Made by a program: the position numbers and the translations under genes. A DNA stretch of 62,724 bases, taken from assembly GCA_018606725.1 (NCBI GenBank), contig JAGYID010000031.1:1-62724 (forward strand). Direction: 5' to 3'. The notes under the pieces are model-generated. The model made no database searches and had not been told where the DNA came from. It saw only the letters and a program-made list of their open reading frames with translations. Shown one piece after another: positions 2,567 through 48,126 of the stretch. The stretch is from Acidobacteriota bacterium. GTDB taxonomy: Bacteria > Acidobacteriota > Polarisedimenticolia > Gp22-AA2. Within the stretch, counting starts at the first letter, position 1, and every line of letters starts with the position of its first letter.

Positions 2567-3646
2567 TCAAGTTTTGCAAGCGGCGGCGATGAATCGGCGC
2601 CCCGGAAGCTGGCGCACCAGTCCGGCGAGCTCGAGGTCCAGAAGCAGCGCCAGCAGCGGCCCCGGGGCCATCCCGGAGGACTGCACCAGCGCATCGATTG
2701 CGATGCCGCGGGTCGCCGGAATGTCGGCGAGCACCCGCCGATGCTCCGGCCCGAGCGCCGTCCCCGGCGCGCCGCCCGGCGCCGCCGGCACTTCCGCCGC
2801 CGTGCCGCCCTCCGGTCCTGCCGGCGCGGCAGCGAACTCGCGCGCCGCCTCGACGACCTGCGGCGCCAGATCCTCCAGAACGTCGGCCGCGCCGCGGCAG
2901 GTCAGGGCGCCGTCGCGCAGCAACGCGTTGGTCCCCTCGGCATTCGGCTCGCCGACCGCCCCGGGCACCGCGTAGACGAGGCGCCCCTCCTGCAGAGCCA
3001 GGTTGGCGGTGATCAGCGAGCCGCTGTCGCGCGCCGCCTCCACCACCACGGTCGCCCATGTCGACCAGGCGATGATCCGGTTGCGCTCCGGGAAATTCCG
3101 CGCCACCGGGCCGAACCCGAGCGGCAGCTCGCTGAGCACCGCGCCGTGCGCCGCGATCGCCTCCGCCAGCTTTCGATGCTCGGCGGGGTAGATCCGATCC
3201 ACTCCGCAGCCCAGCACCGCCAGGGTGCGCCCGCCCGCCTCCAGGGCGCCGCGGTGGGCGGCCGCATCGATCCCCCGCGCCAGCCCGGAGACGACGGTGA
3301 AACCGGCGCCGGCGAGGCCGGCGGCGATGTCCCTGGCCAGCCTCAGGCCGTGCGGCGTGGCCCGCCGCGACCCGACCACCGCCACCGCCAGCGCATCACG
3401 CCGGAGAAGATCGCCACGGGCGTACAGGACCGGCGGCGGGTCCGGCGCGGCGTGCAGCAGGGGCGGGTAGGCCTCATCCTCGATCGTGAGGACGGAGGCG
3501 CCGATGCGGCGGGCGCTCTCGATCTCGGCGTCGGCCGCCGCGACGGCGGCGGCGTCGATCTCCGCCCCGGGCAGGCGCTTTCGCCAGCCCGGCGAGCCGG
3601 CGTGCGTCAGGTTGAGCGCGACCCAGTGCCGGGCCGAACGCGACAA
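2567..3646 (-). CDS. dprA: DNA processing/protecting protein DprA (Smf)
   Basis: 359-aa ORF with the Rossmann-like DprA core (GLARGIDAAAHRGALEAGGRTLAVLGCGVDRIYP). Sits in the conserved dprA-topA arrangement. Confidence 0.9.
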   Translation of the reverse strand: MSRSARHWVALNLTHAGSPGWRKRLPGAEIDAAAVAAADAEIESARRIGASVLTIEDEAYPPLLHAAPDPPPVLYARGDLLRRDALAVAVVGSRRATPHGLRLARDIAAGLAGAGFTVVSGLARGIDAAAHRGALEAGGRTLAVLGCGVDRIYPAEHRKLAEAIAAHGAVLSELPLGFGPVARNFPERNRIIAWSTWATVVVEAARDSGSLITANLALQEGRLVYAVPGAVGEPNAEGTNALLRDGALTCRGAADVLEDLAPQVVEAAREFAAAPAGPEGGTAAEVPAAPGGAPGTALGPEHRRVLADIPATRGIAIDALVQSSGMAPGPLLALLLDLELAGLVRQLPGRRFIAAACKT

Positions 3647-11041: not shown

Positions 11042-12293
11042 CCACGACCAGCCCGGCCTCGCCGGCGGCGTGGCGGGCGAGCGGCAGCGCCTCGGCGATC
11101 GAGGCGGTGGCGCGCACCTCGCCGCCGCCCGGCAAACCGCGCGCGGCGGCCACCGCCGCGAGCGAAGCGGGCGGCGTGACCCGCGGCAGCGGCAGGCCGG
11201 TCACAAAGACGGCGGCGGCGAAGGGGCAGAGAAGCCCGAGCATCTCGTCGGCCGGCTTGTCCTTCATGACGGCGAAGACGAGCGCGATGCGGCGGCCGCG
11301 CTGGTGGTCGCGCAGGTAATCGGCGAGGACGGCGCAGCCGGACGGGTTGTGGGCGCCGTCGAGCAGGATTTCTGGCCGGCCGGGGACGATCTCCAGCCGG
11401 CCGGGCCAGGCGGCGCGCGCCAGGCCGGCGGTGACCGCGCCCGCGTCCACCCCCTCGAAGCCCAAGCGACGGAGCTGCTCGGCGAGCAGCACCGCGACCA
11501 CGGCGTTGTCGACCTGGTGCGCGCCTCGCAGGGCGAGCGTCAGGTGCGGGTACTCGCCGGCGAGCGGCGTGGTCAGCGCGAACGCCGGTGGATCGGGGAG
11601 GGGCGCCTCGGCGCGGACGCGGCAGTCGGCGATCGGCAGCAGAGGCGCTCCGACGCGCTCCGCCATCGCCTGGATCGCCGCCATCGCCTCCGGCTCCTGA
11701 CGGGCGATGACGGCCGGCACCCCCGGCTTGAGGATGCCGGCCTTCTCGCCGGCGATAGCCGGAAGAGTCGATCCGAGCCAGCGGGTGTGATCCATCGCCA
11801 CCCGCGTGATGGCGCAGGCGAGCGGCGTCACCACGTTGGTGGCGTCGTAGGTTCCCCCCATGCCGACCTCCAGCAGGGCGAGCGGCACGCGCTGCCTTCG
11901 GAAGTGCAGGAACGCCAGGGCCGTCGTCGCCTCGAAGTAGGTCGGGTGGTCGCCCGGCGCGAAGGCCTCGGCCCCGATGGCGGCCCGCACCTCGGCCGTC
12001 AGGGCCGCAACCTCGTCTTCGTCGATCATCCGGTCACCGACGACGATCCGCTCCTCGAAGCGGACGAGGTGGGGCGAGGTGTAGACGCCGGGCCGGAGGC
12101 CGGCCGCCTGCAGGATGGCGGCGAGGAAGGCGGTCGTCGAGCCCTTGCCGTTGGTGCCGGCGACGTGAATCGATCGGAAGGCGCGGTGCGGATCACCGAG
12201 GCGCCGGAGCAGCCGGTCAATCCGGTCGAGCCCCGGCCGGATGCCGAGCGACTCGAGGGAGTCGAGCCAGGCGAGCGCGTCCCGATAATTCAT
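10995..12293 (-). CDS. folC: bifunctional folylpolyglutamate synthase / dihydrofolate synthase
   Basis: Mur-ligase P-loop HVAGTNGKGST, followed by TSPHLVRFEERI. I prefer the ATG at 12293 (MNYRDALAWL) over the TTG at 12347. Confidence 0.85.
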   Translation of the reverse strand: MNYRDALAWLDSLESLGIRPGLDRIDRLLRRLGDPHRAFRSIHVAGTNGKGSTTAFLAAILQAAGLRPGVYTSPHLVRFEERIVVGDRMIDEDEVAALTAEVRAAIGAEAFAPGDHPTYFEATTALAFLHFRRQRVPLALLEVGMGGTYDATNVVTPLACAITRVAMDHTRWLGSTLPAIAGEKAGILKPGVPAVIARQEPEAMAAIQAMAERVGAPLLPIADCRVRAEAPLPDPPAFALTTPLAGEYPHLTLALRGAHQVDNAVVAVLLAEQLRRLGFEGVDAGAVTAGLARAAWPGRLEIVPGRPEILLDGAHNPSGCAVLADYLRDHQRGRRIALVFAVMKDKPADEMLGLLCPFAAAVFVTGLPLPRVTPPASLAAVAAARGLPGGGEVRATASIAEALPLARHAAGEAGLVVVSGSLYLVGEAKRLL

Positions 12294-14785: not shown

Positions 14786-15152
14786 GACTGGCGCGGGCCT
14801 CCGGGGGGTCGACGTGCCGGCAATGATAGGACACCCCCCGCGGGTCGGTCAAGGGAATCCGACTGTCGGCGGGGCTGTCGACAACCCGCCCCGGCCCGTT
14901 CGGATTCTCGACACGATGGAATAAACCTTGCCATTTCAACATGATAGATGCAGGCAGTGAGCCGGGCGTGTGGGCCCACCTGTCGGGGATCTGGACTGTG
15001 GCTTCTGTCAGGAATGCGTCGAATCTCGTCGACAGCCGCGGAGGAGACCAGGGCGAAATTCGGCAAGCCATCCATTCTCAATAGCTTGACCGAAGCGCCA
15101 GCCTCGCCCGCCGTACCGAAAATGTCATGGCACACCCGTTGCGATTACTGCC

Positions 15153-15246
15153 GGCGTCGGACAACGCCAAACCATCCGCGAGGGTGGGACGGAAAGCCGC
15201 GGGTCTCGAATGCACTCCGAGACAGCCGGGCCGCCTCAGGGACGCC
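15153..15246 (+). promoter_or_regulatory. c-di-GMP-I (GEMM-I) riboswitch-like aptamer
   Basis: - Closing helix GGCGUC/GACGCC.
- P2 hairpin CCAUCC-GCGA-GGGUGG with a GNRA loop.
- Conserved GGGACGGAAAGCC linker.
- P3 hairpin CGGGUCUCG-AAUGCACUC-CGAGAC(AG)CCG.
- The conserved blocks match the V. cholerae Vc2 aptamer as I remember it.
- Located 31 nt upstream of the S8 protease ATG. Confidence 0.7.
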
Positions 15247-15277
15247 GACGCGTTCCGGTGACTCCGCAGGAGGCATC

Positions 15278-17248
15278 ATGCAGGGGCCCGCTGGAACCGT
15301 CACACTTCGAACCCTGTTCCGCCACGCCGGAGTCATCCTTGCCGCCGTCATTCTTATCGCCTTCGCCACGTTGTCGAACGTGGCGGCGGCCGGCAAGGGT
15401 CACCTGGCCCCGGACCTGGTCGAGAAGATCAGGAAAGGCTCGCCGGGCGAGACCGTCAGGCTGATTCTCGCGCCGACCACCGACGCCGACGCCGCGTTCG
15501 TGTACGACAAGGCGAAGGCGCACGGCGGCAACGTCCGCAACGCGTTCAGGACCCTCCGCCTGATCGTCCTCGACATGCCGCTGGGCGAGGTCGAGGCGTT
15601 CAGCCAGGAGACCGGGGTCGATTATCTCAGCCCCGATCGCCCGGTCGGCGCCCTGGCGAGCCACCTCCAGACGACCACCGGCGCCAGCCTGATTTATCCG
15701 ACCAGTAACCTGCTGTCGAGCGGGGTCGGCGTCGACGGCGCCGGAATCGGCGTCGCCGTCATCGACTCTGGCGTCGACCCCGATCACTTCGACCTCCGCA
15801 ACGGCGGCTCGCGTCGCGTCATCGCCTCGTACGACTTCGTCGGGTCCGGCAGCCTCGACGACTCGTACGGACACGGCACGCACGTCGCCGGGATCGTCGC
15901 CGGCAACGGCTATTCGAGCCTGCAGTCCGGCGGCGTCGATTACTCCGGCATCGCGCCGAGGGCCAACATCATCAATCTCAGGGTCCTCGACAGCTACGGC
16001 CACGGCACCATGAGCGGCGTGCTGGCGGCGATCGACTACACCATCGCCAACCGGAACATGTTCAACATCCGGGTCGTGAACCTGTCGCTGTCGGCCCCGC
16101 CGGTCGACTCGTACAAGAACGACCCGCTGTGCCAGGCGGTCGAGAAGGCGACCAAGGCGGGGCTCGTCGTGGTCGTGGCCGCCGGCAACTTCGGGGTCGA
16201 CGCCTACGGCAACAAGCAGTACGGCAGCATCGCCTCGCCGGCCAACTCGCCGGCGGCGATCACCGTCGGCGCCACCAATACGCAGCAGACGAACTATCGC
16301 TCGGACGACACCATCGCGCCGTATTCGTCGCGCGGCCCGACGATGTCGCACACCACCGACCCGGTGACCGGCACGGTCGTCTATGACCGGCTGGCCAAGC
16401 CGGACCTGGTGGCGCCGGGTTTCCGTGTCGTGTCGCTGGAGCGCTACCAGAACTACGTCGTCACCAACCACCCGGCGCTGCATGTCTCGACGTCCTGGAC
16501 CAACAATCGCGGCCTGTACATGAAGATGCACGGCAGCTCGATGTCGGCCGGCGTCGTGTCGGGGGCGGTGGCGCTGATGCTGCAGGCCAACCCGTCGCTG
16601 ACCCCGAACCAGGTCAAGGCTGTCTTGATGTACACGGCCCAGATCATGAACGGGCCGGACCTGTTTGAGCAGGGCGCCGGGCAGATCAACATCGACGGCG
16701 CCGTCCGGCTGGCCAAGCGGCTGCGCCCGGATGCCGGCACCGTCGCGGTCGGGCAGACCCTGGTTGGTTACAGCGGTCTACCGCTGCCGCAGAGCACCAT
16801 CGCCGGCGAGTCGTTGATCTGGGACCAGGGGCTCATCTGGGACAGCGGCTGGCTCTCGGGCCAGGCGCTGCTCACGACCCAGCAACAGGCGTACGCCCAG
16901 TCGATCATCTGGGGCGGCGGTCTTTACGGCGCCGGCGTGACCTACGGCGCCGGGCTGTTCGGCAGCGGCTATGTCGTCTACGGCCGCAACGGCCAATGGT
17001 CCGACATCGCGTGGGACGCCGGCACGCTCCTCACCAGCGGCCTGCTGTACAAGAACGTCACATACGGCTCCGGGCTGATCTGGGACTCCAAGGTCATCTG
17101 CGGCGACTTCTTCGTCGCGGGCCCGAGCAGTCTGATCTGGGGCAACGACTCCGGGCTGGTCTGGGGCAACGACTCCGGCCTCGTCTGGGGTCTCGATTCC
17201 GGGCTGATCTGGGCCTTCGACCAGAGCCTGGTGTGGGGGCTGGAATGA
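15278..17248 (+). CDS. secreted subtilisin-like serine protease (S8) with I9 propeptide and a Trp/Gly-rich repeat C-terminus
   Basis: ATG at 15278 is preceded by GGAGG (15269-15273). Signal anchor present. Catalytic triad blocks VAVIDSGVD, HGTHVAG and GSSMSAG. The C-terminal 150 aa are built from L(I/V)WG.DSG-type units. Confidence 0.88.
   Translation: MQGPAGTVTLRTLFRHAGVILAAVILIAFATLSNVAAAGKGHLAPDLVEKIRKGSPGETVRLILAPTTDADAAFVYDKAKAHGGNVRNAFRTLRLIVLDMPLGEVEAFSQETGVDYLSPDRPVGALASHLQTTTGASLIYPTSNLLSSGVGVDGAGIGVAVIDSGVDPDHFDLRNGGSRRVIASYDFVGSGSLDDSYGHGTHVAGIVAGNGYSSLQSGGVDYSGIAPRANIINLRVLDSYGHGTMSGVLAAIDYTIANRNMFNIRVVNLSLSAPPVDSYKNDPLCQAVEKATKAGLVVVVAAGNFGVDAYGNKQYGSIASPANSPAAITVGATNTQQTNYRSDDTIAPYSSRGPTMSHTTDPVTGTVVYDRLAKPDLVAPGFRVVSLERYQNYVVTNHPALHVSTSWTNNRGLYMKMHGSSMSAGVVSGAVALMLQANPSLTPNQVKAVLMYTAQIMNGPDLFEQGAGQINIDGAVRLAKRLRPDAGTVAVGQTLVGYSGLPLPQSTIAGESLIWDQGLIWDSGWLSGQALLTTQQQAYAQSIIWGGGLYGAGVTYGAGLFGSGYVVYGRNGQWSDIAWDAGTLLTSGLLYKNVTYGSGLIWDSKVICGDFFVAGPSSLIWGNDSGLVWGNDSGLVWGLDSGLIWAFDQSLVWGLE
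17132..17245 (+). repeat. in-frame 24-nt tandem repeat (4.75 copies) encoding L(I/V)WG(N/L)DSG
   Basis: Units start at 17132, 17156, 17180, 17204 and 17228. CTGATCTGGGGCAACGACTCCGGG and CTGGTCTGGGGCAACGACTCCGGC are near identical. Confidence 0.85.
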
Positions 17249-18036
17249 GCGCCGGCGCCCCGGGCACGAACATGGGCTCCAGCATGAATGACACGACGGC
17301 GACCGCGACCAGGAATCCGATGACCTCCATCTACGTCGCGGCAGTCACGGCAACCGGTGCGGCGGTCATCGCCCTCTCGGTGCGGAACCTCCTGGCGGCC
17401 GATCTCGGTCGGACACTCTACGCGTGGGCCGCGATCACCCTGTTGACCGCCTTCGTCGGTGAGCTGTCCCTGAAGCTGCCGGTGCGCGGCTGCCGCCTGT
17501 CGTTCTCCGACGCCTTGATCTTCCTGTCGTTCCTGGTGTTCGGGGTCGATCTGGCGACGATCACCGCGGCGGTCGACGGCTACACCGCCAGCAGCCGTCG
17601 CAAGGGCGGCTGGCACAAGCGCCTGTTCAACACCGCGGCGATGGCGATCGCCATCAACGTGGCGGCGCGGCTGTTCAACTGGCTCCTCCCGGCCCAGGCG
17701 ATGGCCGCCGGCGTCCGCCTGCGGGTCCTCGACCTGGTGGCGCCCCTCCTGTTGATCGCCGCTGCCCAGTATGCGGTCAACACGGCGCTGGTGTCGGTGG
17801 CCGTGGCGCTCGAGAAGGGCATCCCGCTGTCCGATACCTGGCGGCGCACTTTCTCCTGGAACGGCCTCGCCCTGATCAGCGGCGCCGCCGCCGCCGGCAT
17901 CGTCTTCATGGTGGTACGCACCGTCGGCCTCGGCTCGTTCATCGCCATCCTGCCGGTGCCGATCGTCCTGTACCACAGCTACCGGGTCTGGAAGCACCGG
18001 GTGATTGAGAAGAGGGCCCTGGTCCATCGGGGCTGA
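17245..18036 (+). CDS. polytopic inner-membrane protein (about 6-7 TM), possible sensor module
   Basis: ATG at 17245 overlaps the protease stop (ATGA). Hydrophobic segments run throughout. Coding-type GC3. The start choice among several in-frame ATGs is uncertain. Confidence 0.7.
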   Translation: MSAGAPGTNMGSSMNDTTATATRNPMTSIYVAAVTATGAAVIALSVRNLLAADLGRTLYAWAAITLLTAFVGELSLKLPVRGCRLSFSDALIFLSFLVFGVDLATITAAVDGYTASSRRKGGWHKRLFNTAAMAIAINVAARLFNWLLPAQAMAAGVRLRVLDLVAPLLLIAAAQYAVNTALVSVAVALEKGIPLSDTWRRTFSWNGLALISGAAAAGIVFMVVRTVGLGSFIAILPVPIVLYHSYRVWKHRVIEKRALVHRG

Positions 18037-18158
18037 GGAAGGAGGCACGCCCGAGACGAGGCTCCGTGAGCTGACACCACGAGAGCGAATCGACGCCCGG
18101 CCCCGCGCGCGACGCACGGGGCCGTGGCTTTGAGGACGGACGGCGGGCCGGGACGAAC

Positions 18159-20321
18159 ATGCAGAAAGACGAAGCGTACGGCAGGGTCTACATGCTGGCG
18201 GTGGCGGCGGCCGCGGCGGCGCTGGCCGGGGCCTCGGCGGCGGCGGTGTCGCTGCTGCTGGCGAATCAGCCGACCACCATCTCGTCGATCGCCCTGGTCC
18301 CGATCCTCGGCATCGGCTGGGTGATGTATCGCGCCTACAAGCGGCGCGTCGCCGACAGCCTGACCCGCATCGACCAGCTGATGCGCATTCACCTGTCGAC
18401 CATCGAGGCGCTGGCGCTGGCCATCGACGCCAAGGACCCGTACGCGGTCGGGCGCTCCCGTCGCGTCCAGGCGTATGCCCTGGAAATCGCCCGCCTGATG
18501 CGGGTGCCGAAGAAGCAGCTCGAGGCGGTGCGGGCGGCGGCGCTCCTGCACGACATCGGCAAGCTGGCGATCCCGGATCACCTGCTCCACAAGCCGGGCC
18601 GCCTGACCGAGGTGGAGTATCAGAAGGTCAAGGCCCACCCGGCGGTGGCGGCGGAGATCCTGGCCAGCATCGATTTTCCCTACCCGGTCGTCCCGGCCGT
18701 GCGTCACCACCACGAGCGCTGGGACGGGAGCGGTTACCCGGACGGGCTGAAGGGGGAGCAGATTCCGCTCGCCGCCCGCATCCTGTCGGTGGCCGACGTG
18801 TTCGAGGCGCTCACCTCCGACCGCGTCTACCGCAGCCGCATGTCCTACGAGGAGGCGATGAGCCTCGTCGAGGCCTGGTCGGGGGTGCAGTTCGACCCGC
18901 GCGTGGTGCGGACGCTGCGCGAAAATCTGCGGCGCGTCGTCGAGGCGGCGACCCGCCCCTTGGAGGAGAGGCGCGACGGAAACGACGAGAGCGGCGCGCG
19001 GCCGGGCGCGTGGGATGGCTCCAACCCGCTGGGCGACCTGCTGCACGGCGCCGCCATGCTCGGCAACGGCGAGGATCACGGCGGTTTCGGCGACCGCCTG
19101 CACCGCGGCATCGGCGCCCCCGGTGCGCGCGCCCGGGCCACGGGGTCGGCCGGCGCCGGCGACCGGGGCGGAGCCGCGTGGCCGTCGCAGGACGCGCTCG
19201 ACGCCGGTGTCTGGCTGGAGCGTGACCAGGCCGGCGCGGTCATCGGGCGCCGCGCCGCGGTCCTCAGCGACATCTCCTCGGCGCACCGCGAGGTCTACGC
19301 CCTGTACGAGATCGCCCAGATGCTCGGTGCGTCGCTCCGGCTGGCCGAGGTCCTCGAGGTCGTGGTCAACAAGATCGGCCAGCTGGTGCCCTTTCGGACC
19401 TGCGCCATCTACCTCGCCGCCGAGGGCTCCGACGCGCTGACCGCCCGCTTCACGGCGGGCGAGAACGCCGACCTGCTGCGCGGCCGGACCCTGCGCGCCG
19501 GCGAGGGGATCACCGGGTGGGCGGCGGCGCACAAGAACAACCGCTTCTCGTCGTCGGCCGAGGCGGATTTCGCCGGCACGAGCATCGATGCGTCGCAGTA
19601 CTCGACCGCCGCGGCGTTCCCCCTGTGCCACGACAACACCGCTCTCGGGGTCATCACCCTCTACTTCCCGAAGGGGGTCGCCTGTCTCGACGACCACGTC
19701 CGGATGATGGACATCATCGCCAAGCTGTCCGCCGGGGCGGTGTTCAACAGCACCATGTTCGCCGAGACCCAGGAGTCGGCGCTGACCGACGACCTCACCG
19801 GGCTCCCCAACGCCCGCTACCTGCGCCAGGTGTTCGAGCAGGAGAAGATCCGCAGCCAGCAGGCCGGCCAGCCGATGGCGTTGCTGCACATGGATCTCGA
19901 CGACTTCAAGCTGATCAACGACCGGCACGGGCACCACGTCGGCGACCGTTACCTGCGCGAGATCAGCCGGGTGCTGAAGAGCCACCTGCGCGAGCGCGAC
20001 ATCCTGGTGCGCCTGTCGGGGGACGAATTCGCCGCCGTCCTGCCGCTGACCGGCTTCGCGCCGGCGGCGCTCCTGGTCGAGCGGCTGCAGCAGGCGGTCG
20101 ATCTGTTCACCATCCGGCTGGACGAAGGCAAGGTGGCGCGCGCCGGCCTGTCGGTCGGCATCGCCCTCTATCCCCAGGACGGCGAGCTGTTCGAAGATCT
20201 GATGGTGCGCGCCGACTACAACATGTACCAGAACAAGTCGAGCCGGAAGAACGCCCGCGTCGAGCTCCAGCCGAACATCGTCCCCTTCCCGATCAAGAGC
20301 CCCGGCGGCAAGTCCTCCTAG
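18159..20321 (+). CDS. membrane-anchored HD-GYP phosphodiesterase / GAF / GGDEF diguanylate cyclase composite protein
   Basis: Two N-terminal TM helices. HD-GYP motifs LHDIGK and HHERWDGSGYP. A central GAF-like region. A GGDEF domain with SGDEF at the active site and an RERD I-site five residues upstream. Confidence 0.88.
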   Translation: MQKDEAYGRVYMLAVAAAAAALAGASAAAVSLLLANQPTTISSIALVPILGIGWVMYRAYKRRVADSLTRIDQLMRIHLSTIEALALAIDAKDPYAVGRSRRVQAYALEIARLMRVPKKQLEAVRAAALLHDIGKLAIPDHLLHKPGRLTEVEYQKVKAHPAVAAEILASIDFPYPVVPAVRHHHERWDGSGYPDGLKGEQIPLAARILSVADVFEALTSDRVYRSRMSYEEAMSLVEAWSGVQFDPRVVRTLRENLRRVVEAATRPLEERRDGNDESGARPGAWDGSNPLGDLLHGAAMLGNGEDHGGFGDRLHRGIGAPGARARATGSAGAGDRGGAAWPSQDALDAGVWLERDQAGAVIGRRAAVLSDISSAHREVYALYEIAQMLGASLRLAEVLEVVVNKIGQLVPFRTCAIYLAAEGSDALTARFTAGENADLLRGRTLRAGEGITGWAAAHKNNRFSSSAEADFAGTSIDASQYSTAAAFPLCHDNTALGVITLYFPKGVACLDDHVRMMDIIAKLSAGAVFNSTMFAETQESALTDDLTGLPNARYLRQVFEQEKIRSQQAGQPMALLHMDLDDFKLINDRHGHHVGDRYLREISRVLKSHLRERDILVRLSGDEFAAVLPLTGFAPAALLVERLQQAVDLFTIRLDEGKVARAGLSVGIALYPQDGELFEDLMVRADYNMYQNKSSRKNARVELQPNIVPFPIKSPGGKSS

Positions 20322-20366
20322 GGGCCGGTCCGAGTATTCGGCCGGGCCGCGCACACCTAGCGCGGC

Positions 20367-20395
20367 TTGACAGCCGGTCAGCCCCTGCATACTGT
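20367..20395 (+). promoter_or_regulatory. candidate promoter giving a leaderless or near-leaderless phosphatase mRNA
   Basis: TTGACA (20367-20372), 17-nt spacer, TACTGT (20390-20395). The ATG lies 9 nt after the -10 and has no SD. Confidence 0.45.
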
Positions 20396-20404
20396 CCGGC
20401 TCGC

Positions 20405-21766
20405 ATGCCACGGTTAAGCCCGCTCACCACGCTGCAGATCGTTCTGCTGTCGACGCTACCGGTGCTCACCGCCGGTGCGGCGCCCGCCGAGGCAGCGGCC
20501 GACGGAGGCGCCGCGGCGCGGCCGGCGGGTCGCAGCGCCGTGCTGTTCATCGGCGACGGCATGGGGCCGGCCTACGTGACGGCGACGCGGGTGGCGAAGG
20601 GCGGGTCGGCCGGTCGGCTGCACCTCGACGACTTCCCGTACACCGCGCTGGTCCGCACTTGGTCGGCGACCGGCCCGGTCACCGATTCTGCGGCGGCGGC
20701 GACCGCCTATGCCTGCGGGCGGAAGACGGTCAACGGCGTGCTGTGCGAGGACGCCACGGCGGTCTACGGAAAACGGGACGGCGGCAGGCTGGAGTCGATC
20801 GCCCGTTGGGCGAAGCGGCGCGGTCTGCGCGTCGGGCTGGTGACGACGGCGCGCGTCACGCACGCCACCCCGGCCGCCTTTTATGCCGTCGAGGACAACC
20901 GCGATCAGGAGCGGGCGATCGCCCGGGCGGCGATCGATTCGGGGCTCGATTTCATCCTCGGCGGTGGGCGGCGCTTCTTCGCCGCCGAGGCGCCGCGCGT
21001 GGCGACCGACGGCTGGCAGCCGTCCGATCGCGACGACCTGGTCGCAGCGGCACGGACCAGGGGCTGGCGGGTCGTCATGACCGGTGAGGAGCTCAGGAAG
21101 GTGACCGCGCTGTCGCGTCCGGTGCTGGGGCTGTTCGACGCCGACCACCTGCCGTACGAGGCGCCCGCGCCGATCGCGCCCCGCCCGGCGCCGACGCTGC
21201 GCGACATGACCCGCTGGGCGATCTCCGTCCTGCGGCGGTCCGGTCGGCCGTTCTTCCTGATGGTCGAGGGGGGGCGGATCGATCATGCCGGGCACGAGAG
21301 CTGGGCCCGGACGCTGGTCGACGAGACCGCCGCCTTTGACGACGCCATCGGCGAGGCGACGCGCCTGCTCGATCCCAAGTCGACGATGATCCTGGTGACC
21401 GCCGACCACGAGACCGGCGGGCTGGCGATCAACGGCTACCCGGAGGAGAAGGACGGATTGTTCGGCACCGTGCCGTCCGACGAGGGGGCCGCGCCGCACC
21501 CGGTCCTCACCTTCGCGGGCGGCCCCGGAACGAGGGAGGGCCCGCGCGGCGCGCCTTACGGCGCCGACGATCCGCGCCCCACTCTGTTCGTCGACTCGGC
21601 GCACACCGGCGTCGACGTGATCCTGTACGGCTGGGGCGCCGGCGCCTGGCAGGTGCGCGGCACGCTCGACAACACGGCGGTGTACGTTCTCCTGTACGAC
21701 CACCTGTCGGGCCGCGCGTCGAAACGTTCCGAGCTGGCGGGCCCGCGCGCCGCCGCCGGGCGCTGA
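20405..21766 (+). CDS. alkaline phosphatase (PhoA family)
   Basis: Signal peptide. Motifs FIGDGMG, the nucleophile block VTDSAAAATAYACG, and TADHETGG. Confidence 0.88.
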   Translation: MPRLSPLTTLQIVLLSTLPVLTAGAAPAEAAADGGAAARPAGRSAVLFIGDGMGPAYVTATRVAKGGSAGRLHLDDFPYTALVRTWSATGPVTDSAAAATAYACGRKTVNGVLCEDATAVYGKRDGGRLESIARWAKRRGLRVGLVTTARVTHATPAAFYAVEDNRDQERAIARAAIDSGLDFILGGGRRFFAAEAPRVATDGWQPSDRDDLVAAARTRGWRVVMTGEELRKVTALSRPVLGLFDADHLPYEAPAPIAPRPAPTLRDMTRWAISVLRRSGRPFFLMVEGGRIDHAGHESWARTLVDETAAFDDAIGEATRLLDPKSTMILVTADHETGGLAINGYPEEKDGLFGTVPSDEGAAPHPVLTFAGGPGTREGPRGAPYGADDPRPTLFVDSAHTGVDVILYGWGAGAWQVRGTLDNTAVYVLLYDHLSGRASKRSELAGPRAAAGR

Positions 21767-45984: not shown

Positions 45985-48126
45985 TCAGTAGACGACCAGG
46001 CAGGCCGCACCGGGGGCAATCTCGGACCCCCCGGGCGGCTCCTGTCGCGTGACGTGCGGCCCGCCGACCTGGTTGCGACAGGTCAGCCTGGCCGCCGCGA
46101 GCGCCTCGCTCGCCTGTCGCATGCTCAGTCCGGTGAGCTCCGGCATCGTGGCCCGACCCGCCGCCGGCGCCAGGCGCACCGGCGACCCGGCAAGCGAAGC
46201 CCGCAGCACCTCGGCCTCCCGTCCGGCGCCGGCGCCGCGGCGCACCGCGGACACCGCGGTCGGCGGCGTGGCCGGGCGCCGATCGCGGGCAGGCGCGATC
46301 GCGCCCTGGAAGCCGCGCTCCGCCACGACGGCACGATCAAACACCAGCGGTCCCTGCCGGTCGGGTTGCACACCGAGGTACTGCAACGCCGGCAGCGCGA
46401 CGCGCGCGAACACCGGCGCGGCGATGTCGCCGCCGTGGAACTTCGGGCCCTTCGGCTCGTCGATCATGACGACGATCGCCAGGGCCGGCGCGTCCGCCGG
46501 CACGAACCCGGCGAACCAGGACACGTACTTGCCGCGCGCGTACCGGCCGGTGCCGTCGATCTTCTGCGCCGTTCCGGTCTTGCCGCCGACGCTGTAGCCG
46601 GGGAGGGCGGCGGCCTTGGCGGTCCCGTCGACGGTCACCGACTGCAGCGTCTTGCGCAGGACCCGGGCCGTGGCGGCGGAGATCACGCGGCGCGCGTCGT
46701 CCGGGCCCCGCGGGCGCGGCGCCCGGCGGCCGTCGGGGGCGATGGTCGCCTGCACGACGTGCGGCCGGACCCAGACGCCATCGTTGGCCAGGGCGGCCAG
46801 CATGGACGCCAGCTGCATCGGCGTCGTGCCGATCTCCTGCCCCATCGACAGCGACGCCTGCGACAGCCCCGACCACTGCGGCAGGTCGCGCAGCAGGCCG
46901 GTGCTCTCGCCCGGCAGATCGATGCCGGTCTTGCTGCCGAAGCCGAAGCCGCGGATGGTCGCGATGAACTCATCCGGGCGCAATCGCCGGCCGATCTTGA
47001 TGGCGCCGACGTTGCTGGACTTGGCGAGGATGTCGGTGAACGTCAGGTTGCCGTACGACAGGCGATCCTCCTTGTAGAGATGGTTGGCGATTTGAATCGA
47101 GCCGTTCTCGCACCAGATCACCTCGTTCGGGTGCACGCGTCCGCGGTCGAGCGCCGCCGCCGCAGTCACCACCTTGAAGGTCGAGCCCGGCTCGTAGTAG
47201 TCGGTGACCGCCCGATCGCGGCGCGCCGCATCGGCGGCGGCGGCATAGTTGTTCGGGTCGAAGGTCGGGCGGCTCGCCAGCGCCAGCACCTCGCCCGTCT
47301 GCGGCCGCAGGACGACGACGGTCGCCCCGTCGGCGCCGGTCTCCTGCATGGCGGTGTCGAGCTCGCGCTCGGCGGCGTACTGGATTATCTCGTCGATCGT
47401 CAGCGCCAGGCCGTCGCCGACGATCGGGTCGACGCGCGAGCGATCGAAGACCCGCCCGCCCCGCCCGTCGCGCAGCGCCAGGATGCGCCCGGGCGTTCCC
47501 TGAATGGCCTTGTCGTACAGGAATTCCAGCCCATCGAGCCCCTGGTTGTCGACGCCGCAGGCGCCCAGCACGTGCGCCGCGAGCGCGCGTTTCGGGTAAT
47601 AGCGCCGGCTCTCGCGCACGAAGCCGATCCCGTCGAGATGCAGCGCCTCCACCTTGCGGCGCAGCTCGGGGGTGATCTTGCGCTTCAGCCAGGCGAAATG
47701 ACGGTCGCCCTGCAGCCGCTCGCGCAGCTCGGCGGCGCGCATCCCGAGGATCGGCTCGAGCCGGCGGGCCACGGCGCCCGCGTCGTCGATGGCGGTGGGC
47801 TGGGCGAACAGCGAGTCGACATCGAGGCTGACCGCCAGCTCCTTGCCGTTGCGATCGACGATGGCGCCGCGCAGCGGATCGAGCGTGATCGTCTGTTCCT
47901 GCTGCGAGCGGGCCTGCTCCAGGAGTTCCGACGCCTTGAAAATCTGCAGCCAGGCGCAGCGTGCCACCAGCGCCATGAGGCCGACCGCGACCGACAGCGC
48001 CAGCAGGACGACGCGCGCCCGGCGGGCGGCCGTGGTCGGAACCGGGTCGCGGTCCTTCCAGTGCGGCCGGCGGCGCGCCGCCCGCCCGCCGGCGGCCGCG
48101 TCGAAGCCGCGGCGCCTCGTCGTCAT
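45985..48126 (-). CDS. ftsI: class B penicillin-binding protein FtsI/PBP3 with a C-terminal PASTA domain
   Basis: TM anchor and dimerisation domain. Transpeptidase motifs STFK, SSN and KTGT. The last 55 aa match the PASTA pattern (MPELTGLSMRQASEALAAARL...VTRQEPPGGSEIAPG). Confidence 0.92.
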   Translation of the reverse strand: MTTRRRGFDAAAGGRAARRRPHWKDRDPVPTTAARRARVVLLALSVAVGLMALVARCAWLQIFKASELLEQARSQQEQTITLDPLRGAIVDRNGKELAVSLDVDSLFAQPTAIDDAGAVARRLEPILGMRAAELRERLQGDRHFAWLKRKITPELRRKVEALHLDGIGFVRESRRYYPKRALAAHVLGACGVDNQGLDGLEFLYDKAIQGTPGRILALRDGRGGRVFDRSRVDPIVGDGLALTIDEIIQYAAERELDTAMQETGADGATVVVLRPQTGEVLALASRPTFDPNNYAAAADAARRDRAVTDYYEPGSTFKVVTAAAALDRGRVHPNEVIWCENGSIQIANHLYKEDRLSYGNLTFTDILAKSSNVGAIKIGRRLRPDEFIATIRGFGFGSKTGIDLPGESTGLLRDLPQWSGLSQASLSMGQEIGTTPMQLASMLAALANDGVWVRPHVVQATIAPDGRRAPRPRGPDDARRVISAATARVLRKTLQSVTVDGTAKAAALPGYSVGGKTGTAQKIDGTGRYARGKYVSWFAGFVPADAPALAIVVMIDEPKGPKFHGGDIAAPVFARVALPALQYLGVQPDRQGPLVFDRAVVAERGFQGAIAPARDRRPATPPTAVSAVRRGAGAGREAEVLRASLAGSPVRLAPAAGRATMPELTGLSMRQASEALAAARLTCRNQVGGPHVTRQEPPGGSEIAPGAACLVVY

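Follow-up and report, generated by a model that had tools for sequence, protein, structure and literature searches.

Organization of the locus

A contig of 62,724 nucleotides (nt) from a soil-type Acidobacteriota bacterium (JAGYID010000031.1, assembly GCA_018606725.1; the window, whose numbering is used throughout) carries a riboswitch-like leader followed by three genes on the same strand. An earlier annotation made from the sequence alone (the original prediction) had read these as a possible single autoregulatory transcription unit, in which a cyclic di-GMP (c-di-GMP) sensor controls an extracellular protease, a membrane module and an enzyme that sets the level of the ligand itself. Comparison with relatives identifies the locus as a predicted riboswitch-controlled operon for a subtilase of peptidase family S8 and a MASE9 sensor protein (Table 1), the four parts of which, namely a sigma-54 promoter, an aptamer, the S8 gene and a coupled MASE9 gene, form a core that is, as judged by sequence, conserved across an Acidobacteriota clade. 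Thirteen independent loci of relatives, with 12 distinct leaders and 55-88% protein identity, have the same order of aptamer, S8 gene and membrane-protein gene, which is therefore not accidental. L-numbers below denote loci of relatives obtained from genome and metagenome scans and from a protein search.

Table 1. Positions of the features of the riboswitch-led locus and of the gene that follows it
Feature	Position	Strand	Evidence
Predicted sigma-54 promoter TGGCACACCCGTTGCG	15128-15143	+	Sequence motif and conservation
GEMM-I-clan aptamer	15157-15239	+	cmscan/Rfam RF03167
Putative expression-platform hairpin H1	15239-15256	+	Alignment of relatives
Shine-Dalgarno sequence AGGAGG; ATG of the S8 gene	15268-15273; 15278-15280	+	Sequence; conserved in alignment
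S8 subtilase gene, 656 amino acids	15278-17248	+	Pfam PF00082
MASE9 gene, 263 amino acids	17245-18036	+	Pfam PF20972
Motif TGAGCTGACAC in the 3' untranslated region	18067-18077	+	Conservation among relatives
GC-rich spacer hairpin with UUU	18095-18131	+	Fold and positional homology with the terminators of relatives
Enzyme gene (two transmembrane helices, HD-GYP, GAF, GGDEF), 720 amino acids	18159-20321	+	Pfam
Alkaline phosphatase gene	20405-21766	+	PF00245, E = 1e-80

A GEMM-I-clan aptamer with canonical contact bases

The aptamer was the single riboswitch found by cmscan in the entire window, with a best match to the family c-di-GMP-I-GGC (RF03167, clan CL00126; 65.3 bits, gathering threshold 59, E = 3.6e-13); the riboswitch-like leader is thus a true member of the GEMM-I clan. 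A lower-scoring match to another CL00126 family was removed by the clan filter. When applied to the aptamers of 13 relatives, the RF03167 model gave 59.3-67.1 bits, and each aptamer lay directly 5' of an S8 gene. The window aptamer comprises a hairpin with a GCGA tetraloop and a P2 stem, and its contact positions hold G (15166), A (15193) and C (15234). These fall in model columns 10, 37 and 75, the equivalents of the Vc2 contacts G20, A47 and C92 (reportedly described by Smith in 2009). In the printed alignments the three columns have G, A and C with posterior '*', and they do not vary among the aptamers. Across 11 sequences the structure fitted well, with 93.5% of cells able to pair as opposed to 32-54% in slid controls; the core was invariant and covariation was confined to P1.

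Although RF03167 was the top-scoring model and the P2 stem (GGGUCU...AGACAGCCGGG.UGCC) is near its consensus, the position after which the variant is named (column 37, the A47 equivalent) is G in the variant and A, at high posterior probability, in the window and the 13 related aptamers, so that by the naming criterion none of the 14 is a GGC variant. The pair corresponding to G21-C46 is inverted to C-G in all members, and by the binding site, where the RF03167 consensus reads GGC...GACGCGAAGCC, all 14 aptamers instead read GCC...GACGGAAAGCC. By its contact bases, the aptamer therefore classifies as a canonical 'GAC' c-di-GMP type with a flipped closing pair and a P2 stem like that of the GGC seeds. 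The GEMM-I identity given in the original prediction accordingly holds for clan membership and contact bases, with the qualification that the best Rfam model is that of the GGC variant.

Because the contact bases are the canonical G, A and C, c-di-GMP is quite likely the ligand. An unlikely alternative is that the aptamer senses another molecule, such as 3'3'-cyclic GMP-AMP (cGAMP) or a further dinucleotide, in which case its loop with the downstream enzyme would be only apparent. The choice of the variant model over the parent family and the flipped C-G pair beside the binding site are consistent with this alternative, as is the finding that the solved HD-GYP protein closest in sequence to the enzyme is the cGAMP-specific phosphodiesterase V-cGAP3 (5z7c, E = 2.9e-45). 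It is opposed by the diagnostic position, which is A rather than G, by the other two contact positions, where G and C match c-di-GMP binders, and by the lower-scoring matches to the same clan (family not displayed), one per aptamer, that stood behind the clan filter in each search. The GGC variant, reportedly described by Weinberg and colleagues in 2017, is not known to have an established ligand; cGAMP-selective GEMM-Ib RNAs reportedly (Kellenberger and Nelson, both in 2015) have A at the first contact position.

The aptamer shares its fold, its clan, a hairpin with a GNRA tetraloop and its place in the 5' untranslated region of genes encoding secreted or surface factors with known GEMM-I riboswitches such as Vc2 of Vibrio cholerae. 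In contrast to these, it has the flipped G21-C46 pair, is best matched by the GGC model, follows a sigma-54 promoter, uses a hairpin other than a terminator as its putative platform, precedes an S8 subtilase and a MASE9 sensor as its presumed target genes, and has a c-di-GMP enzyme downstream.

A predicted sigma-54 promoter stacked on a putative P1/H1 switch

The motif TGGCAC-N5-TTGC at 15128-15142 is the sole exact match in the window, and each of the 14 aptamers examined is preceded by a GG-N10-GC signature at a constant distance. From the textbook spacing of the -24 and -12 elements, transcription is predicted to start near 15154, 3 nt ahead of the aptamer and nearly at position 15153, where the original prediction had its feature begin. 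In Blastocatellia, S8 genes are likewise preceded by TGGCA(C/T)-N5-TTG(C/T) motifs; no aptamer was found upstream of them, the leaders being too short for one, at least in L016. Since the promoter motif occurs there without the riboswitch, dependence on sigma-54 seems to be the older of the two.

An imperfect inverted repeat at 14876-14913 (TGTCGACAACCCG / CGGATTCTCGACA), retained in L096 and L097, is a possible enhancer or operator site; it lies between the sigma-54 promoter and a divergent accD promoter on the minus strand (TTGACC/TATCAT, 14852-14823). Elsewhere in the window, a second near-consensus sigma-54 motif with one mismatch (TGGCGCCGACGTTGC) is found at 47001-47015 on the plus strand.

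Downstream of the aptamer, H1 (GGGACGC-CGAC-GCGTTCC) uses in its 5' arm the 3' strand of a long P1 (GGCGUC at 15153-15158 pairing with GACGCC at 15241-15246). This hairpin is kept in all relatives, as CAACGGGA...TCCCGTTG in most of them, and in every lineage it starts within the 3' strand of P1, so that P1 and H1 would be mutually exclusive; a P1/H1 switch is thus visible in the leader sequence. Intrinsic termination was rejected as the mode of action since H1 has no U tract, whereas U-rich terminators occur elsewhere in these genomes, and a strict terminator scan of the window did not list it. Occlusion of the Shine-Dalgarno sequence was also rejected, because thermodynamic modelling of nine homologues gave nearly unchanged unpaired probabilities for this sequence in the free RNA and with the aptamer enforced. 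RNAalifold indicated only a weak GCC/GGC contact, the minimum free energy z-scores were not significant, and an alternative single long P1 in the window (GCGUCGG/CCGACGC) was not supported by the substitutions in L096.

An S8 protease partnered with a free MASE9 domain

The S8 gene was placed by its ATG four bases past the Shine-Dalgarno sequence; a mechanically called open reading frame of 766 amino acids (14948-17248) was discarded because it runs across the aptamer. The product matches the full Peptidase_S8 profile (E = 8e-52, residues 155-469), its translation contains the triad motifs VIDSG, HGTHVAG and GSSMS, and a single hydrophobic transmembrane or signal segment (residues 19-37) predicts a secreted or anchored protease. 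Its C-terminal region (residues ~510-656, nt 16800-17245) ends in SGL[IV]WGxD tandem repeats, with 5-9 W-motifs in the window clade. All S8 proteases adjoining MASE9 end in such short hydrophobic tandem repeats, which are lineage-specific (GITLSE, GFVLGS or GIMIAS in the Blastocatellia loci L016, L017, L018 and L021) and over which no Pfam or NCBIfam family was found.

The ATGA overlap of the protease and membrane-protein genes, at 17245-17248, was verified and suggests translational coupling. What had been called a membrane module is, more exactly, a stand-alone MASE9 sensor domain. The match to PF20972 is marginally above threshold (25.7 bits; cut-off 24.3), and BLASTP aligned the protein with the N-terminal domains of fused homologues at E values of 1e-22 to 3e-11, the best being that of residues 30-243 with residues 21-231 of a fused Blastocatellia protein in L016 (E = 1e-22). 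Unlike a MASE9 domain that forms the N-terminal sensor of a protein with an output domain, this protein of 263 residues has no other domain.

Overlap and adjacency of the S8 and MASE9 genes were seen in all loci examined. A metagenome scan with the protease yielded 14 loci at 55-62% identity; where enough sequence was available 5' of S8, an RF03167-model aptamer (59-64 bits) lay directly 5' of it in 10/10 cases, and in 12/12 loci whose contigs pass the S8 stop codon the next gene was MASE9. A protein search with MASE9 added L096 (88% identity; aptamer score 67.1 bits) and L097 (83%; 65.1 bits), which share the whole neighbourhood of the window: genes for GT2, a FolC-like protein, an MFS protein and AccD on one side, then aptamer, S8, MASE9, enzyme and alkaline phosphatase. 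The nearest genome, a Candidatus Polarisedimenticolia metagenome-assembled genome found by a genome scan with the enzyme (L001, 64% identity), has the order S8, MASE9 and HD-GYP-GAF-GGDEF on a contig that ends before the leader. The more distant MASE9 orthologues P0016 and P0012, starting points free of bias towards S8, again lie immediately behind an S8 gene whose C-terminus carries the same repeats. Exact-sequence look-ups of the window proteins gave no match on record. In L081 (1262-7240) and L094 (2406-8566), the latter having two aptamers, a module of sigma-54 motif, aptamer, S8, MASE9 and terminator is tandemly duplicated; in L081 the second copy is followed after about 13 nt by an HD-GYP-GAF-GGDEF gene.

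A single protein with the architecture MASE9-HD-GYP-GAF-GGDEF has been described (Galperin and Chou, bioRxiv 10.1101/2021.11.05.467447), and its domains and their order are those encoded here. In L016, L017, L018 and L021 the S8 gene is directly followed by a gene for exactly such a fused MASE9-HD-GYP protein, which has no recognizable GGDEF domain in L021 and whose contig stops inside the HD-GYP region in L017. By comparison with the proteins of Galperin and Chou, MASE9 is here a separate gene under a riboswitch and the enzyme is left with a two-helix remnant; a partnership with S8 genes goes unmentioned in their paper. The original prediction had not recognized the three-gene arrangement as one already described; the domain combination itself is known in single-protein form.

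The fused architecture, known from relatives and the literature, together with the different frames of the two open reading frames, raises the question of whether a frameshift or assembly error has split a single MASE9-HD-GYP-GAF-GGDEF gene into the membrane and enzyme genes. This is extremely improbable, as the split is kept in at least 10 independent loci with spacers of 2-550 nt, the stand-alone protein spans the whole MASE9 domain, and the enzyme has two transmembrane helices of its own. Furthermore, both proteins align with the same segment of the fused proteins, and the stand-alone orthologues form their own clade: the best 13 cluster representatives among 1.8 billion proteins are all 229-288 amino acids long, which marks free MASE9 as a clade rather than an accident and disposes of the broken-gene reading. 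With the split conserved and both parts complete, the artefact was rejected on these comparative data. The two N-terminal helices of the enzyme align with the last two helices of the fused MASE9 domain, and when compared directly the C-terminus of MASE9 and the N-terminus of the enzyme show weak similarity (E = 0.31); the basis for a possible partial duplication is that both align with that same segment of the fused proteins.

The pairing of protease and sensor also admits a quite improbable reading in which the S8 repeats, released or inserted, would be an intramembrane ligand of MASE9, and MASE9, either fused to the enzyme or acting in trans via the shared two-helix hairpin, would set the c-di-GMP level. 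The riboswitch would then close this loop through the amounts of both the signal (protease) and its receptor (MASE9), and not through the enzyme.

An HD-GYP-GAF-GGDEF enzyme with a non-canonical A-site

The third gene encodes two N-terminal transmembrane helices, an HD-GYP domain (residues 87-249, nt 18417-18905; HD_5, E = 1e-46), a GAF domain (residues 394-528, nt 19338-19742) and a GGDEF domain (residues 541-698, nt 19779-20252). The motifs named for it were all found, with HDIGK and HHERWDGSGYP in an intact HD-GYP domain and an RERD I-site five residues upstream of SGDEF (RERD-ILVRL-SGDEF), which here stands in place of GGDEF; the metal- and substrate-binding motif DxDxFKxxND is intact. PDB sequence matches include HD-GYP phosphodiesterases and diguanylate cyclases; PmGH follows V-cGAP3 as the closest solved HD-GYP protein, and the enzyme aligns with 5z7c and 4mcw over the HD-GYP catalytic core.

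All 12 homologues compared retain the HD-GYP motifs, whereas none of the family has a canonical A-site. The window clade has SGDEF and the Blastocatellia proteins of L009, L011 and L016 have AGDEF, and in L002, L018 and L022 the site is unrecognizable or lost. From this contrast the enzyme may be mainly a phosphodiesterase, and the most economical reading gives it that activity together with a GGDEF domain that is weakly active or allosteric. Whether the enzyme, in place of a dual synthase and hydrolase, is a phosphodiesterase whose SGDEF domain is purely a nucleotide-binding allosteric module, with GTP or c-di-GMP bound at RxxD, we judge an even question. Retention of RxxD in the window clade and the absence of a GGDEF domain in L021 favour such a module, while the intact DxDxFKxxND motif speaks for catalysis, as do SGDEF and AGDEF enzymes that are reportedly active cyclases (Pectobacterium ECA3270, Vibrio VCA0965). 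A purely allosteric domain is compatible with the operon reading given below and refines it.

A variable junction between MASE9 and the enzyme gene

The spacer ahead of the third gene was verified as 122 nt (18037-18158). The distance from MASE9 stop to enzyme start varies widely among relatives, being 2 nt in L001, about 13 nt in L081, 72 nt in L097, 122-124 nt in the window and L096, 261 nt in L099, and about 400-550 nt in L082, L084, L090 and L093. The spacer hairpin (GCC-GGCCCCG ... CGGGGCC-GGC), followed by UUU only, has a covarying stem and is the positional homologue of canonical T5-T6 terminators in L084, L090, L093 and L100; it was not flagged in the strict terminator scan and looks like a degenerate terminator or attenuator. 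Given this conserved hairpin with its weak U tract, co-transcription of the enzyme gene would be by read-through. Neither a second riboswitch nor another known RNA was found in the spacers (Rfam, E up to 1). An independent promoter, which the original prediction had named as evidence to the contrary, was not seen: motif scans gave no sigma-54 or sigma-70 candidate for this gene, either in or ahead of the spacer of the window or in its closest relatives L096, L097 and L099.

We favour, with some reserve, a sigma-54-dependent operon with a c-di-GMP-type riboswitch leader and an enzyme gene reached downstream by read-through. Several observations weigh against this explanation. Besides the variant model and flipped pair of the aptamer, H1 without a U tract and the unchanged Shine-Dalgarno accessibility, no enhancer-binding protein motif (GAFTGA, or Walker-type of the bacterial enhancer-binding proteins) was found in any frame of the window, and the activator of the promoter may be encoded elsewhere. 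The stable part of the window spacer hairpin (18095-18128) could still terminate transcription. After MASE9, a canonical terminator (GGCCGGTCCCG...CGGGACCGGCC with a T run of 4-6) is present in L082, L084, L090 and L093, and there the enzyme gene is preceded by a sigma-54 motif, TGGCA(C/T)GGGCGTTGCG (L082 4738, L084 9054, L090 9053, L093 5394). Finally, no enzyme gene was found downstream in L085, L087, L091 and L092 within about 1.6-5 kb of sequence. With a separate terminator and promoter, or no enzyme gene found downstream, in these relatives, an enzyme gene in cis is not a requirement of the riboswitch.

These terminators, promoter motifs and missing enzyme genes of relatives, together with the homologous hairpin retained in the window, would also fit two transcription units, with the riboswitch acting on S8 and MASE9 only and the enzyme gene transcribed alone, its adjacency reflecting a shared function or regulon. 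For the window we consider this doubtful: no promoter motif was found for the enzyme gene there or in its closest relatives, UUU is all that remains of the U tract in the window lineage, only 27 nt separate the end of the U run (18131) from the enzyme ATG, and the gaps in L001 and L081 are very short. The sigma-54 motif ahead of the enzyme gene in L082, L084, L090 and L093 resembles that of the riboswitch, and the separately transcribed riboswitch and enzyme units may respond to the same activator.

Taken together, these comparisons define S8 and MASE9 as the conserved predicted riboswitch regulon and the enzyme gene as a variable add-on, closely coupled to MASE9 in L001 and L081. Of the three-gene circuit of the original prediction, the arrangement of aptamer, S8 and MASE9 thus stands, and the enzyme is not a fixed member; its expression by attenuated read-through in this genome, with a lineage-specific autoregulatory link, is plausible.

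The spacer also contains a motif, TG(A)GCTGAC(A/G)C, that lies past the MASE9 stop codon in the window, L081, L084, L090, L093 and L096-L101. It is identical or nearly so in 10 loci for which MASE9 identity to the window is given as 36-47%, and is more conserved than the flanking proteins. Its form in the window (TGAGCTGACAC) has no other match there and matches no Rfam family; in most relatives the motif is followed by a small hairpin, GCAGGCGAcCCCTGC, and then by the terminator. It could be a small RNA derived from the 3' untranslated region or a protein-binding site.

Neighbouring features

The enzyme gene is followed by the alkaline phosphatase gene also in L084, L090, L093, L001 and L096. 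The 83-nt gap between the two (20322-20404) contains a GC hairpin and a promoter-like sequence, TTGACA-17-TACTGT, which suggest a separate unit; although always found after the enzyme gene, the phosphatase gene probably has its own promoter and lies outside the operon. Among the loci of relatives, L013 has two convergent Acido-Lenti-1 RNAs (2821-2867, minus strand, and 2972-3017, plus strand; 48 and 45.5 bits) just downstream of a Pyrinomonadaceae MASE9-HD-GYP gene, and the Blastocatellia locus L015 carries a tRNA-Sec gene at 11499-11592.

Proposed mechanism and implications

In the operon that we propose, binding of c-di-GMP would stabilize P1 over H1 and thereby change the expression of S8 and MASE9. 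The enzyme, made by read-through of the weakened terminator hairpin, would track the riboswitch at reduced gain and act mainly as a c-di-GMP phosphodiesterase, its SGDEF/I-site domain being either a cyclase of weak activity or an allosteric sensor of nucleotides, and the free MASE9 protein would provide its membrane input in trans. An ON riboswitch would make this loop homeostatic, and an OFF riboswitch would make it bistable.

The usual targets of c-di-GMP riboswitches are outputs, among them motility, adhesion and secreted factors. A review (PMC6366702) describes riboswitch control of c-di-GMP enzymes as rare and cites a precedent for control of an extracellular protease by c-di-GMP (Peltier 2015); the nearest functional parallel to the present locus is the C. 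difficile c-di-GMP riboswitch controlling the protease ZmpI. The parts themselves, a GEMM-I riboswitch, an S8 protease, MASE9 and HD-GYP-GAF-GGDEF, are already known. We found no description in the literature of a sigma-54 promoter stacked on a riboswitch, of the flipped-pair aptamer subgroup, of the S8-MASE9 partnership across two acidobacterial classes, or of a freed MASE9 under a riboswitch.

The locus thus presents a sigma-54 promoter stacked on a predicted riboswitch and identifies a pair-flipped subgroup of GEMM-I, and the uncharacterized MASE9 sensor gains a conserved genetic partner in a subtilase with odd C-terminal repeats. Its relatives form a natural series in which one riboswitch/protease/sensor core is accompanied by an enzyme that is fused, coupled, attenuated, separately promoted or absent, and this series would permit tests of how second-messenger feedback is wired and rewired.

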